A program made the translations under genes and the position numbers. The notes beneath the pieces were generated by a model, which saw nothing but the letters and a program-made list of their open reading frames with translations, was not told the origin of the DNA and searched no databases. 64,000 bases of DNA from Gammaproteobacteria bacterium (GTDB lineage: Bacteria; Pseudomonadota; Gammaproteobacteria; UBA4575), in NCBI GenBank assembly GCA_965243395.1, contig CBDEUS010000002.1:1056001-1120000 (forward strand), in the 5' to 3' direction. The stretch's first letter is position 1. Every line of letters begins with the position of its first letter. This document shows positions 21,814 through 25,240 of the stretch, piece by piece.

Positions 21814-22149
21814 ATGTCTGAAATAATTCCAGATATGGAAGAAAGAGTAAGAAAATTAGAACGAATAATGTTTACCGTACGTGTGGCAATCATTGTCATC
21901 GTAGGATTTATGATGTACGACGCGCTATCACCAGATACAGGCTCAGATATTATTTTTGCAGATAAAATTAAGTCCAGAGCATTTGTGCTATTGGGCTCCG
22001 GGGATCAACCAGTGGGTTATTGGGATGATAAAAAAACTAATGGGTTTAAGATGTATTCCAAACAGGGCAATCACGTTTTGTTAAAACCTGAAGCGCTTAC
22101 TTTTTATGAAGATAAATTAAATCCTGAAGTTAAAGCGAAATATGATTAA
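21814..22149 (+). CDS. Hypothetical single-pass membrane protein
   Basis: AAGGAG SD; short coiled coil followed by a TM helix. Confidence 0.7.
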   Translation: MSEIIPDMEERVRKLERIMFTVRVAIIVIVGFMMYDALSPDTGSDIIFADKIKSRAFVLLGSGDQPVGYWDDKKTNGFKMYSKQGNHVLLKPEALTFYEDKLNPEVKAKYD

Positions 22150-22174: not shown

Positions 22175-23677
22175 TTATTCTATTTTTTCTCCATATTTCT
22201 TTTTATGTAGTTTTTTAGATTGGCTGACCCATTTGTCGCGGTTAATACGATCTGGGAAACTACCTAAAGTTTCAGCTAAAGTTTCAATATCGCCTTTGGT
22301 GAGTCGGCCAAGCTGCTCATAGGAGTACACGCCAAAGTCGTTTAGCTTGCCTTCCATTACAGGGCCAATCCCTTTTATAACTTGCAACTCATCTTTAACT
22401 TTTGCTGCCGCGATCTTTAAGCCTTTGGCAGGTGCTTTTAAACCTGTTGCTCGTTTGCTTGTTGTTTTTTTGACTTTTTTTGCGGCTTTTTTAACAGTTC
22501 GTTTGGGGCGTTGTGGCTGAGGAGCAGGACGCTTTATTTTACTTTTAAGTGCTTCAATGGTGTGTTCATGTTCACGCAACATGGATAGATCAAGTTTGGA
22601 GGACTGTAATTCACTTTCCAATTCAGACATTTTAGATTTGTATTCCTGAACCACGGTAGCGCTTGAAGCCTGCGCACGACTTTCAGCGGTACGTAATTGT
22701 TCACGTAAGTCATCAATAACCGCATCTTTTTCTTCACAAGTGTCTACGTATACGCGTTCTTTTTCACTTGCTTCAAGCTTAACTTCATTAATTTGTTTGT
22801 ATGTGCGGCCTAGTACAGTATTTTTAGAAGTTCCAAGTAGTCGCACTTTGTCCATGAAGCGATTAAATTTAGTATCTTGCCCTGGTTCTTCACCTTCTAG
22901 TGGTGTGAGCTGATCAATTCGATTTTGTAGCTTAACTAAAGTTTCCTGGTTGCGTGCATTTTGTTCGGCTAAGTCTTTTGCGCGAAGTTTTTGCAGCTCA
23001 TTCATTTCAGTTTGAGACTTATTCTGTAAATCATATAGTTGGGCTTTGGTTTCACTGACTTGTTTTTCGAGCTCAGGATTCATTAAAGAGCGGTCTTGTC
23101 TCCACTTCGTTTGAATTTGGCTGATCATGCCATATAGCCCTTTCAGGTCATTTTCAGATGAAGTGACTTTGTCATTTAGTCGATAAACTTTTCCAATCAT
23201 GTCATCAAGCCTATATTTAAAAGACTCTTGATCAGTAACACGATTATTTAAACGTTTTATTTTCTGGTTCGCATCGGAGTGTAAATCAGCATAGTGGCAC
23301 GCAAGACTTTCGAAATCATCGCGTTCACTAAGTGTTTGTTGATACATGCCCTGGACTTTCTTTAGCCAAGCTTGATGGATGGGTAATTGTTTAGCTTTTT
23401 CTAGAGAGGTTTGCCATCGTGAAGTCATCAACATTAAGTCACCACTTTGACGATCATATTGAGCTTGAATGTTGTTGCGCTGAGTTTTATAGCTAGCTGC
23501 TTGTTGTTTAGTTTCTTCTAATTCTCTTGATTGAATAGAAATTTTGTTTTCTAAATCTGTGCGTAATGCAATTAAATCACGGTTACATGTGTATCGGCGT
23601 ATAAACCACCCCACTGCTATACCTAGTGCTGTCGCCGCTAATAAATAGCCAAATAATTCAATTAATAAATAGCTCAT
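22175..23677 (-). CDS. Membrane-anchored coiled-coil protein with C-terminal helix-hairpin-helix (COG3743-like) domain
   Basis: N-terminal TM; about 350 aa of heptad-rich sequence; K/A-rich linker; DELQVIKGIGP...LNDFGVYSYEQL...RINRDKWVSQ. Confidence 0.8.
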   Translation of the reverse strand: MSYLLIELFGYLLAATALGIAVGWFIRRYTCNRDLIALRTDLENKISIQSRELEETKQQAASYKTQRNNIQAQYDRQSGDLMLMTSRWQTSLEKAKQLPIHQAWLKKVQGMYQQTLSERDDFESLACHYADLHSDANQKIKRLNNRVTDQESFKYRLDDMIGKVYRLNDKVTSSENDLKGLYGMISQIQTKWRQDRSLMNPELEKQVSETKAQLYDLQNKSQTEMNELQKLRAKDLAEQNARNQETLVKLQNRIDQLTPLEGEEPGQDTKFNRFMDKVRLLGTSKNTVLGRTYKQINEVKLEASEKERVYVDTCEEKDAVIDDLREQLRTAESRAQASSATVVQEYKSKMSELESELQSSKLDLSMLREHEHTIEALKSKIKRPAPQPQRPKRTVKKAAKKVKKTTSKRATGLKAPAKGLKIAAAKVKDELQVIKGIGPVMEGKLNDFGVYSYEQLGRLTKGDIETLAETLGSFPDRINRDKWVSQSKKLHKKKYGEKIE

Positions 23678-23730
23678 AGTTATGGTCTCTTATTTATTTC
23701 GGTTTTTATGTCTTAGATGTTTAAAGAATA

Positions 23731-24537
23731 TTATTGTATACGGGAAACCGCGAACTCTATGCGACGGTTTTGTGCTCGCCCCTCAACGGAATCATTAGAT
23801 GCAATCGGCAATGTTTCACCAAAACCCGATGCGGTTAAGCGTTCGGGTTGAATACCATTGTTGCTGAGATAATCTAATACGGACTGTGCACGTTGTTGGC
23901 TCAATTGCAAATTCAATTCATCGTCACCAGCATTATCAGTATGGCCTTCAACCGTAACATTAAACTCTTTATGTTCATTTAATACTCTGATTACATCATT
24001 AAGAATTAATTTACCTTTTTCTGTGATTTCATCACTACCAAATAAAAAAGTAATTCCTGACAGATCCAAGGTTTGTAGTAATTCCTCCACGACTTCTTCT
24101 TGGGCAGTCTCAATCTCAGCTTCGGGTGTCATAGCCACTTCAATTTCGGGCTCCGGTTCAAGTTCAGGGAGTGGCTCAAGCTTGGGTTTAATGACTACTT
24201 TGGGTTTTGTCATTCCGGGCTCTGCTCTTGCAACGACAAGCTGATTATCCACAGTTCTGATGCCTGGCATGGACGCAATAATTTGTTCAATTTCATCAGA
24301 ACGACTTTGGCTCGCGACAGCTCCTGTAAGAGTAGCATCACGACCATCTACGTTGACAATCGCGTTTCCAATTTGGTTTTCCTTTAAAAGTTGATTGCTT
24401 TTTAAATTCAAGTCGTTTTCTATGTACTCAGCTTTACTGTCTTGGGTAAACCAATACAGAGCTATAAATCCTATCAAGCCAAGAATGAGAGGAAGTAATA
24501 AGCCAAGAATAAAACTATTTGTACGTTGATCCGTCAT
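23731..24537 (-). CDS. TM-BON-OmpA-like peptidoglycan-binding protein
   Basis: N-terminal TM; BON (VDGRDATLTG...VDNQL); EP-rich linker; GHTDNAG...LSQQRA...NRRIEF. Confidence 0.88.
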   Translation of the reverse strand: MTDQRTNSFILGLLLPLILGLIGFIALYWFTQDSKAEYIENDLNLKSNQLLKENQIGNAIVNVDGRDATLTGAVASQSRSDEIEQIIASMPGIRTVDNQLVVARAEPGMTKPKVVIKPKLEPLPELEPEPEIEVAMTPEAEIETAQEEVVEELLQTLDLSGITFLFGSDEITEKGKLILNDVIRVLNEHKEFNVTVEGHTDNAGDDELNLQLSQQRAQSVLDYLSNNGIQPERLTASGFGETLPIASNDSVEGRAQNRRIEFAVSRIQ

Positions 24538-24778
24538 GGTTGGTATCTGTTATTTTTAGTTTTAATTTGTAGAGAAACTAATTTCTCGACTCAAGGTTAA
24601 GTATTGCTTGAACGTAGACAATTCGCAAACAAAATTATATGAATAACGTCCATTAGACGTTTAGATGTGAGGACTAAAAAGGTTTTTCCTTATAAAATTA
24701 AGGGAATTACAAAATGCCAATGAAAGCTTAAATTAAATATTTGCAGAGTAGTTATTTTGTTGGTTTAACTTAGCAGTT

Positions 24779-25240
24779 TCATACGGAAGTAAACTCATCG
24801 GGGATACGTTTATTCAGTTTTGTGATTAGGGCTATAAAATGTTTACTCTCAGTCCTTGTGAGATCAGAAAACATTTTACTGTATGCATGATCCATTAAAG
24901 CAATTCCAAGTTTGGCAATCTCTTCACCTCTCGGAGTAAGCTTGATGTCCACCACTCTTCGATCGAATTGATTATGTGTGCGCTCAATACAACCCCTGTC
25001 CTCAAGCTGATCTAAATATCGGCTTACGGTTGCGCGTTCTATCATCAGGTCATCTGCTAGCTTGGCTGGGGTGTAAACTACCTTGCTGGAAATAGCGTGA
25101 ATTAAGCGCCATTGGTTAAACTTAAGACCATGACTATTCAACTCTTTATTTAATTTTGCGCGTGCAAAAGCGTTAAGCTTATCTGCAAATGAGATAATCA
25201 CAGGAAATGACGAATGAGTATTACTGAATTTGTCATTCAT
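24779..25240 (-). CDS. MarR-family transcriptional regulator
   Basis: LA...ERATVSRYLDQLEDRG..ER...DRRVV...LTPRG. Confidence 0.9.
   Translation of the reverse strand: MNDKFSNTHSSFPVIISFADKLNAFARAKLNKELNSHGLKFNQWRLIHAISSKVVYTPAKLADDLMIERATVSRYLDQLEDRGCIERTHNQFDRRVVDIKLTPRGEEIAKLGIALMDHAYSKMFSDLTRTESKHFIALITKLNKRIPDEFTSV

Follow-up and report, generated by a model that had tools for sequence, protein, structure and literature searches.

Two adjacent genes on the minus strand, here called gene A and gene B, occupy positions 22175 to 24537 of the window, a 64,000-nucleotide stretch of contig CBDEUS010000002.1 (assembly GCA_965243395.1) from a gammaproteobacterium of the UBA4575 lineage. The two genes almost certainly form a conserved cassette that crosses phylum boundaries, and their products are very probably coupled in function. 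Gene A is predicted to encode a periplasmic peptidoglycan binder on an inner-membrane anchor. Gene B encodes a membrane-anchored protein with a long helical rod, a basic linker and a C-terminal domain of the (HhH)2 type (two helix-hairpin-helix motifs), here called the head. DNA tethering is the single most probable function of the pair, though unproven, and a wall-anchored protein scaffold is its main rival. We put forward tentatively the whole chain, that is, a two-protein, wall-anchored inner-membrane complex that tethers DNA. A preliminary description of this DNA had reported two co-oriented genes 53 bp apart, and both open reading frames (ORFs) were found exactly where it had placed them:

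23731..24537, minus strand: gene A, 268-amino-acid protein with a transmembrane (TM) segment, a BON domain, a linker and an OmpA-like domain (ORF, Pfam OmpA and BON matches above cut-offs, orthologues)
22175..23677, minus strand: gene B, 500-amino-acid protein with an anchor, a helical rod, a basic linker and an (HhH)2-type domain (ORF, 92 homologues, alignments, model)

Recurrence of the gene pair across genomes

Loci retrieved from sequence searches are numbered from L001. Among the close relatives, the gene B orthologue is immediately preceded by a BON-OmpA gene in five of the six loci with upstream sequence (L001-L004 and L006); L005, L007 and L009 are cut at their 5' ends and fall outside this count. 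The whole block, Tgt-QueA-MarR-A-B-orf111-HAD-YjbQ-IspG, is syntenic within the clade, so that adjacency there is weak evidence taken alone. The evidence that decides the matter comes from a more distant set of 71 loci (L010-L080), which were found through the C-terminal domain. When 56 upstream neighbours from these loci were searched against Pfam, 13 had an OmpA domain, most of them together with BON, and one (L013) had BON alone. Further pairs were recognized in L010, L019 (cut) and L043 by tblastn and ORF reading, and in L027 the BON-OmpA gene is immediately downstream of the gene for the head protein. Where the protein with the C-terminal domain has just one anchor, at its N-terminus, and lacks an enzyme domain, 18 of 20 distant loci have a BON/OmpA neighbour; L020 and L021 were excluded from the 20 because their products have two hydrophobic segments and a different N-terminus.

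These 18 pairs come from Actinomycetota, Bryobacteraceae, Rhodothermaceae, Bacteroidetes, a delta proteobacterium, Devosia and other Devosiaceae, Maritalea, Hellea/Maricaulaceae/Caulobacterales, and Gammaproteobacteria. At higher rank, a TM-BON(-OmpA) gene next to a gene for the same anchor and an HhH-type C-terminus was seen in Actinomycetota, Acidobacteriota, Bacteroidota, Rhodothermaceae and the Alpha-, Delta- and Gammaproteobacteria. No third conserved gene was found among 45 proteins encoded in the flanks of 15 loci (12 that contain the pair, plus L011, L028 and L086), and the surroundings are unrelated. Since the pair recurs in distant loci with unrelated flanks, the pairing is not a matter of local synteny. 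The preliminary description had named adjacency across genomes as a test of its proposal, and the adjacency proved to be conserved across genomes and phyla. The partners vary in size: in L018, L043 and L077 (Devosia, Devosiaceae and Maritalea) the A-type protein has 850-1159 residues, with a long stretch between anchor and OmpA-like domain that by eye appears repetitive, and is long enough to span a wide periplasm.

The same association was seen within the genome to which the window belongs (2.58 Mb in 2 contigs; G000, hereafter the own genome). It contains seven OmpA-domain matches and exactly two BON matches, and both BON genes are directly upstream of an anchor-HhH gene. In the second pair, which has no OmpA-like domain, a 123-amino-acid TM-BON gene lies 25 bp upstream of a 212-amino-acid gene whose product has the same N-terminal anchor as gene B, followed by a DUF4332 domain (E 2.3e-25). 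The own genome also encodes a longer paralogue of gene B, of 623 residues, which is flanked by an ABC-F-type ATPase gene and a divergent membrane protein gene:

L086:1822-2857 (own genome, G000:C2:736500-742000): second cassette, TM-BON gene and anchor-DUF4332 gene
L085:4081-5952 (own genome, G000:C2:752500-762500), minus strand: 623-amino-acid paralogue of gene B with an anchor and, after a long coiled-coil region, two heads in tandem

Two samples of the class were used to count the association. For the first, the anchor-DUF4332 protein was the query against 301 class genomes, the own genome included; 39 matched, again counting the own genome, and the 29 loci returned from other genomes comprised 8 anchored and 21 soluble DUF4332 proteins. 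All eight anchored proteins are preceded, at distances of -4 to +3 nucleotides, by a gene with an OmpA-like domain (three of these upstream genes are cut by the locus edge), and BON was detected in seven of the eight, all except L092. None of the 21 soluble proteins has such a gene directly upstream; an OmpA match is present 1.1 kb away in L099, and a convergent one in L108. Six of the soluble-protein loci (L098, L104, L108, L109, L111 and L116) have a DUF4332 gene of about 135 codons preceded by a gene for 107-135 amino acids, whose products share a similar N-terminus in all six and may constitute another conserved pair.

The second sample, obtained with the TM-BON protein as query, gave 24 places in 19 other genomes. 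Eight were already in the first sample, and 15 of the other 16 were examined: two are at contig ends, two encode OsmY-like BON proteins with neither OmpA domain nor partner, and 11 are TM-BON-OmpA genes. Every one of these 11 is directly followed by an anchor-bearing gene, with an HhH-type head in eight. In both class samples together, an anchor-bearing gene comes next after every one of the 19 TM-BON-OmpA genes, and 16 of the 19 partners have an HhH-type domain; as kin are not independent, these figures are to be read as counts, with no p-value attached. Roughly 45 pairs are known in all.

Fused forms were also sought. PF00691 is absent from all 92 gene B homologues, which is a weak test for A-B fusions, and the one longer relative of the own-genome anchor-DUF4332 protein, of 917 residues, has neither OmpA nor BON (likewise a weak test).

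Domain structure of the gene A product

The layout read earlier for gene A, a TM segment followed by BON, a Glu/Pro-rich linker and an OmpA-like domain, was confirmed by Pfam matches to both domains above their cut-offs. Its parts are:

24448..24513, minus strand: membrane anchor, residues 9-30 (hydrophobic stretch in the translation)
24229..24393, minus strand: BON domain, residues 49-103 (Pfam PF04972)
24058..24228, minus strand: Glu/Pro-rich linker, approximately residues 104-160 (sequence; gapped, weakly conserved alignment columns)
23764..24051, minus strand: OmpA-like (OmpA-C) domain, residues 163-258 (Pfam PF00691)

The anchor is a hydrophobic helix of 22 residues. The N-terminus before it has 8 residues, one of them Arg, and the flank after it is acidic. 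In an alignment of 50 orthologues, its columns L14, G20 and L27 are nearly invariant. There is no Asp or Glu in residues 9-30; the helix is thus not a proton-conducting one of the MotB/TolR type. The BON domain (E 3.9e-8, 33.9 bits, cut-off 27) has R66, G72 and G92 invariant in the same alignment, and the linker that follows differs in length between orthologues. The OmpA-like domain covers the whole Pfam model (E 6.9e-25, 87.7 bits, cut-off 27.2), and it is this part alone that matches structures in the PDB, the best being YiaD (E 1.1e-18) and Rv0899/ArfA (2l26, E 1.3e-18). Invariant in the 50 orthologues are D201 (in G-H-T-D), R216 (in L-S-x-x-R-A) and N257-R258-R259. By analogy with OmpA and Pal structures, D201 and R216 are probably the pair that contacts the peptidoglycan stem peptide.

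Anchor, rod and linker of the gene B product

For gene B, the translation and an AlphaFold2 model agreed with the features first read from the letters, namely a TM segment followed by RR, about 350 residues of long helices, a Lys-rich run and the IKGIGP motif. The model, built from 59 homologues, has a mean predicted local distance difference test (pLDDT) score of 76.5 and predicts helices at residues 4-197, 201-256, 270-281 and 285-382. The parts before the head are:

23585..23677, minus strand: N-terminal anchor module, residues 1-31 (conserved columns in 59 sequences)
22910..23584, minus strand: helical rod, first part, residues 32-256 (AlphaFold2 helices 4-197 and 201-256)
22688..22909, minus strand: conserved core, residues 257-330 (dense run of conserved columns)
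22532..22687, minus strand: helical rod, last part, residues 331-382 (within predicted helix 285-382)
22394..22531, minus strand: basic disordered linker, residues 383-428 (charge count; pLDDT)

The anchor module consists of a 3-residue N-terminus, the TM helix (hydrophobic residues 4-26), RR and Cys31. G19-x-x-x-G23-W24 is invariant and Cys31 nearly so in the 59 sequences, and the same GxxxG-W module heads the partner proteins in other phyla as well as the DUF4332-type partners. Cys31 (23585-23590) lies close behind the anchor helix, on its cytoplasmic side, where DUF4332-type partners (L089-L097) often have Cys-Cys; metal binding, acylation and dimer cross-linking are possible roles for these residues.

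The first part of the rod has pLDDT values of 72-95 over most of its length. It presumably forms a coiled coil, in keeping with a weak match of gene B to the SMC coiled-coil model in NCBIfam (E 0.0024). The stretch from 257 to 330 is the best conserved in gene B outside the anchor and the head, with P259, D268, R273, D276, R279, G282, N286, G290, R291, R308, D312, C314-E-E-K317, D318 and L324 invariant or nearly so; pLDDT falls below 50 at residues 258-270 and 278-287. The linker of 46 residues contains 17 Lys and Arg and no Asp or Glu (net +17), and pLDDT is below 50 at residues 383-409. Lys/Ala/Pro-rich linkers also occur in many paired relatives, with net charges of +10 to +16 in many alphaproteobacterial pairs. 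In the Bryobacteraceae locus (L014:2850-5228) the 792-residue partner has about forty tandem 15-residue repeats, rich in Pro, Asp, Ser and Gly, between anchor and head. These repeats replace the coiled coil, and the spacer can thus be of quite different kind.

The C-terminal domain and its other hosts

The presence of an HhH domain in gene B, as first proposed from the IKGIGP motif, was supported by sequence matches in the PDB and NCBIfam and by a fold search:

22193..22393, minus strand: five-helix (HhH)2-type domain, residues 429-495 (PDB sequence matches, domain model, structural search)

Gene B alone matched the PDB chains 9wqv_a (E 2e-12) and 8yy9_O (E 5e-8), and with a profile of the domain the matches rose to E 1.1e-30 and 2.4e-28, respectively. 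The head also matches the C-terminal extensions of the NCBIfam models for NuoE, L21, S2 and PhaH (PRK12373, PRK12278, PRK12311 and PhasinPhaH). After these family members, the profile gave weak matches to HhH proteins: eL32 (1.4e-3), Dpo4/Dbh (7e-3), then ComEA (2duy_A, E 0.0086), RecG and RadA. In Pfam, gene B gave just one chance-level match at E <= 0.1, and neither an HhH model nor DUF4332 (PF14229), so that the HhH call rests on the other evidence. The same domain of relatives does match HHH_5 (PF14520, cut-off 27), with 41.6 bits in L017, 35.1 in L019, 31.4 in L054 and 29.3 in L022, and that of L019 matches DUF4332 at E 2.8e-6. The preliminary description had labelled the head COG3743, a label that was not returned by any search here; heads of this type and DUF4332 are related at the clan level only.

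In 44 aligned copies of the domain, nine positions are invariant (D, L, K, G, G, P, G, Q and W). The sequence match takes in the whole domain of about 67 residues, the D-D-L-x-x-I-K-G-I-G-P and G-R-I-x-R-D-x-W stretches included, and the G-I-G-P hairpin does not vary. Modelled alone from 44 diverse copies, the head reached a pLDDT of 86.5 and a predicted TM-score (pTM) of 0.75. Structural comparison with VIA-align, which treats Z >= 8 as clear and for which lower values are common with small helical domains, placed NusA AR1 (1u9l_B) and the Rad51 N-domain at the top (both Z 6.7), followed by POLQ (6.6), NusA AR2 (2jzb_B) and Pol iota (both 6.0), Pol X (5.9) and SAM domains (4-4.6). Over 63 aligned residues, the head differs from NusA AR1 and the Rad51 N-domain by a root-mean-square deviation of 2.3-2.5 A. 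The modelled fold is thus (HhH)2-like, and folds of this kind comprise both DNA binders and protein binders. Foldseek found no match in the PDB at E <= 0.001 with either the whole gene B model or the head alone, and the ESM Atlas gave no annotated cluster, those closest (score 0.94) being hypothetical proteins without a name.

The same head occurs at the end of other proteins: NuoE (with NuoD upstream), NrfD/ActC-type proteins, L15, L20, S2, PhaE, dodecin and a LivG-type ATPase. In nine Flavobacteriaceae loci (L022, L024, L025, L038, L041, L048, L063, L074 and L075) it ends a membrane protein of the NrfD type, about 580 residues long, whose gene follows that of a 4Fe-4S protein of about 1040 residues; read by eye, the arrangement resembles ActB-ActC of alternative complex III. 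Ribosomal protein S2 of the own genome (L087:2123-3202; G000:C1:379000-385500; plus strand; 359 residues, upstream of tsf) ends in a Lys-rich stretch and an HhH tail that resembles DUF4332, and NCBIfam models such tails for alphaproteobacterial S2. The Hellea/Maricaulaceae/Caulobacterales partners carry additional sequence after the head, which in the two that were scanned (L036 and L044) is DUF2853 (E ~1e-24); the tails in L058, L060, L072, L073 and L078 are similar to these in length and sequence.

Two of the matches come from Urf1-type proteins that have been studied in structures. In the part of it that was available, PMC12079452 traces only the N-terminal helices of such a protein, its C-terminal domain being absent from the cryo-electron microscopy map. 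The available part of PMC13066640 likewise records only the N-terminal portion, cleaved in a loop.

Membrane orientation of the two proteins

The charges that flank the anchor helices were summed over 26 pairs. For the B-type proteins, the N-terminal flanks have a net charge of -8 (with one Lys or Arg in all of them), and the 15 residues after the helix a net charge of +37; for the A-type proteins the corresponding values are +20 and -18. These statistics indicate that gene B is inserted N-out/C-in and gene A N-in/C-out. Together with the cytoplasmic hosts on which the head is found (NuoE, S2, L15, L20 and PhaE among them), the flank charges place the rod and head of gene B in the cytoplasm, as the preliminary description had supposed, and the BON-OmpA part of gene A in the periplasm. 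Gene A would then have few residues in the cytoplasm and gene B few in the periplasm, so direct contact could take place only within the membrane. A direct, membrane-embedded complex of the two proteins through helix-helix contact appears reasonably likely. A complex prediction with residues 1-105 of A and 1-80 of B gave no verdict (score 0.00, with no controls) and counts neither for nor against binding.

A proposed mechanism and its alternatives

We propose that the BON domain of gene A would lie at the outer face of the inner membrane, with the OmpA-like domain holding peptidoglycan. Gene B would be inserted in the opposite sense by its GxxxG-W anchor helix, so that the rod, which may oligomerise, the flexible basic linker and the head project into the cytoplasm. 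The two proteins would meet in the membrane, most likely helix to helix, and the assembly would act as one bitopic protein split in two, a post fixed to the wall with a cytoplasmic tip that binds a polyanion. The most likely ligand would be DNA, bound with no sequence preference, and part of the nucleoid (or the other ligand of the head) would thereby be fixed to the sacculus. The invariant G-I-G-P hairpin, the (HhH)2-type fold, the net +17 linker and the Lys/Ala/Pro-rich linkers of relatives favour a polyanion, and most simply DNA; that DNA is what the head of gene B binds may be the case, and we hold this with some reserve. A wider reading is doubtful, namely that this is a widespread and hitherto unrecognised bacterial trans-membrane linker, in which a TM-BON(-OmpA) protein is helix-paired with an anchor protein whose head holds the chromosome and so couples nucleoid and sacculus, the head on NuoE, ActC, Urf1, S2, L15, L20 and polyhydroxyalkanoate (PHA) proteins being a general DNA-docking device.

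Several observations weigh against DNA tethering by the pair. The pairing has exceptions: in L008, whose gene B orthologue has 30% identity, gene B comes straight after the MarR-family gene and gene A is missing; L011 and L028 encode an anchor-HhH protein without a BON/OmpA neighbour; and the 623-residue paralogue in the own genome, with its anchor and two heads, has no BON/OmpA gene beside it. In three class-sample partners (L151, L155 and L158) the anchor is present and no HhH domain was detectable by tblastn or Pfam, so that the constant feature is the anchor and not the head. As regards the head, gene B itself matches no Pfam HhH model, all the fold matches have Z <8 with NusA AR1 and AR2 among the top ones, and the domain is nearly neutral (mean net charge +1.4), being acidic in some lineages. 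The basic linker is missing from the paired relatives L006, L012, L013, L019, L027 and L029. In their available parts, the two papers that met this domain on Urf1/protein-O (PMC12079452 and PMC13066640) call its function obscure. The DNA-binding head of the preliminary description is supported in its fold, which by the model is (HhH)2-like, and is weakened by the NusA matches, by the near-neutral charge and by the relatives that lack the linker.

The main rival, which we regard as rather unlikely, retains the same split complex and makes the head a protein-binding module that brings a conserved cytoplasmic partner, for instance RNA polymerase, the ribosome or some other large assembly, to a wall-anchored scaffold, with a function resembling that of landmarks of the HubP/FimV type. 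NusA AR1 and AR2, two of its best fold matches, are domains that bind proteins, and SAM domains also appear in the comparison; in many members the head has almost no net charge or is acidic, its occurrence on very different cytoplasmic proteins (NuoE, ActC/NrfD, L15, L20, S2, PhaE, dodecin and LivG) fits a generic docking module, and the strictly conserved G-R-I-x-R-D-x-W with its invariant Trp suggests a specific pocket. However, (HhH)2 modules that bind DNA reach the same scores (Z 6.7 for the Rad51 N-domain, 5.9-6.0 for Y-family polymerases and Pol X), and the unvarying G-I-G-P hairpin and the Lys/Ala/Pro-rich stretches of net +10 to +16 that often precede the head are typical of polyanion binders; nor is any candidate partner gene conserved beside the pair among the 45 flank proteins. 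Less probable again is an envelope-state sensor or stabiliser, in which BON and the OmpA-like domain sense or withstand alterations of wall, membrane or periplasm, for example under osmotic or mechanical stress, gene B transmits this inward or stabilises the membrane, and any nucleic-acid binding is incidental. BON is reportedly associated with osmotic protection and membrane binding, as Yeats and Bateman are said to have described in 2003. Some partners are TM-BON only (the second pair of the own genome and L013), which makes BON the constant periplasmic part, and some pairs have wall-remodelling genes nearby (SLT in L018 and L077, MipA in L027 and Peptidase_M15 in L072). These nearby genes are on other strands, however, and differ between lineages; gene B has no signalling output domain recognisable in Pfam or NCBIfam, and the HhH-type head in 16 of the 19 class-sample pairs would be left unexplained.

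A DNA-directed or anti-phage defence module of the Zorya kind, or a membrane nuclease encoded by gene B, would be most improbable. Gene A does match ZorB models in PADLOC (E 8e-15), a wall binder with a long cytoplasmic rod resembles ZorAB, and several gene B relatives bear the JGI name 'predicted flap endonuclease-1-like 5' DNA nuclease'. The ZorB match, however, covers only the generic OmpA/MotB C-terminal domain (residues 161-264), gene B matches no PADLOC model and has no nuclease domain in Pfam or NCBIfam, a multi-pass partner like MotA or ZorA is lacking, acidic residues are absent from the helix of gene A, and the pair lies among housekeeping genes of conserved order (tgt, queA, ispG) rather than in a variable island. 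It is scarcely credible that the two genes are unrelated chance neighbours held together by inherited gene order. The synteny of the whole block in the own clade and the lack of gene A in L008 would fit such an explanation; against it, the pairing is found again, between unrelated flanking genes, in five or more other phyla or classes, occurs twice in the own genome, and tracks the anchor helix (8/8 against 0/21).

Comparison with described proteins

The families of gene A, its ArfA architecture and the family of the gene B head are known; what appears new is their split, wall-anchored pairing with an HhH tip. The open full-text literature yielded no description of a BON-OmpA gene in a pair with a gene for a membrane protein of HhH type. 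The likeness of gene A to mycobacterial ArfA that had been pointed out at the start was substantiated: ArfA (Rv0899, OmpATb) is described, in the available part of PMC6151718, as an N-terminal membrane-anchoring sequence, a central domain of the BON superfamily and a C-terminal OmpA-like domain. This three-part order is common to both proteins, and the match of gene A to 2l26 covers only the OmpA-like residues 164-265. The gene for ArfA belongs to a small operon that also encodes other membrane proteins; ArfB and ArfC are small and are not known to have a rod or an HhH head. The ammonia-release and acid-adaptation role proposed for that operon has no counterpart in the present evidence.

Urf1/protein-O/protein-3h and the tails of NuoE, L21, S2 and PhaH share the C-terminal domain of gene B, and their hosts are likewise membrane- or particle-associated, with the head on a flexible, often Lys/Ala/Pro-rich linker. 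The Urf1-type chains 9wqv_a and 8yy9_O, which come from light-harvesting 1-reaction centre (LH1-RC) complexes, nevertheless plug into their complex by an N-terminal U-shaped helix pair that is unrelated to gene B. The other tail hosts differ in having an enzyme or ribosomal protein at the N-terminus. A BON/OmpA partner is lacking throughout, Urf1 included, with NuoD or NuoE upstream in its place.

Landmark proteins of the HubP/FimV/TspA kind and SPOR proteins of the DamX/FtsN kind also combine a periplasmic peptidoglycan binder, one membrane span and a large cytoplasmic part. They are single polypeptides with LysM or SPOR domains, whereas A and B are two oppositely inserted proteins with BON and OmpA-like domains and an HhH tip; no sequence relation to them was seen among the Pfam and NCBIfam matches. 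MotB/PomB, TolR-Pal, ExbD and ZorB resemble gene A in their N-terminal span and periplasmic OmpA-like domain (NCBIfam and PADLOC matches). Stator-type proteins have an acidic residue in the helix and a multi-pass partner, both of which are lacking for gene A, in which a BON domain is inserted besides. A stator identity was accordingly rejected: the helix has no Asp or Glu, the neighbours are the MarR-family gene and gene B, and no gene of the MotA/TolQ/ExbB/ZorA type was found in the flanks of 12 distant pairs. The identity of gene B as a FEN-1-like 5' nuclease was also rejected, as no PIN-like or 5'-3' exonuclease domain was found in Pfam or NCBIfam and only the small HhH-type tail could prompt the name. 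ComEA and proteins with histone-H1-like Lys/Ala/Pro tails, such as PhaM, are anchored or particle-bound and hold DNA without sequence preference through (HhH)2 or the tail. In ComEA the HhH part is outside the cytoplasm and serves DNA uptake, whereas the gene B head is cytoplasmic by charge statistics and would bind DNA only if the present proposal holds.

Genomic surroundings of the pair

The two genes are probably expressed from one transcript. In most relatives they abut or overlap, with gaps of -4 to +15 nucleotides. A consensus scan found no terminator-like site and no minus-strand promoter-like site in the spacer between them, nor did it find a sigma-70-like minus-strand site in the region 5' of gene A; the scan itself is uninformative, with 6 promoter-like sites observed against 10.0 expected from shuffles. 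From its position, the 241 bp upstream of gene A is the likely place of the promoter of the pair.

23678..23730, minus strand: 53-bp spacer between gene A and gene B (ORF coordinates)
24538..24778, minus strand: 241-bp region 5' of gene A (intergenic, from the MarR-family gene to gene A)
24779-25240, minus strand: MarR-family regulator gene, 241 bp upstream of gene A and co-oriented
21814-22149, plus strand: ORF of 111 codons, convergent with gene B

The MarR-family gene, which could control the pair, is present at this place in L001, L002, L006 and L008 and was undetected in L003 and L004. The 111-residue product of the convergent ORF has one hydrophobic segment and no family match, and the ORF is found at the same position in all nine close loci, L001-L009 (31-74% identity).

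Biological significance

We know of no dedicated envelope complex that ties the wall of growing bacteria to their chromosome; the known wall-anchored landmarks, HubP and FimV among them, each consist of one protein and have different domains. The cassette gives a shared context to ArfA-like TM-BON-OmpA proteins, to a functionally obscure HhH-type tail and to a conserved GxxxG-W anchor. Since it has cultured carriers, Devosia algicola G20-9 and Maritalea mediterranea P4.10X, genetics is feasible. Should the head bind protein, the pair would represent a new kind of wall-fixed scaffold. Should it bind DNA, the finding would bear on nucleoid positioning and on contacts between membrane and nucleoid, and would explain why the same tail is found on respiratory and ribosomal proteins of some lineages; if DNA tethering is true, the pair would constitute a new kind of link between the envelope and the nucleoid.

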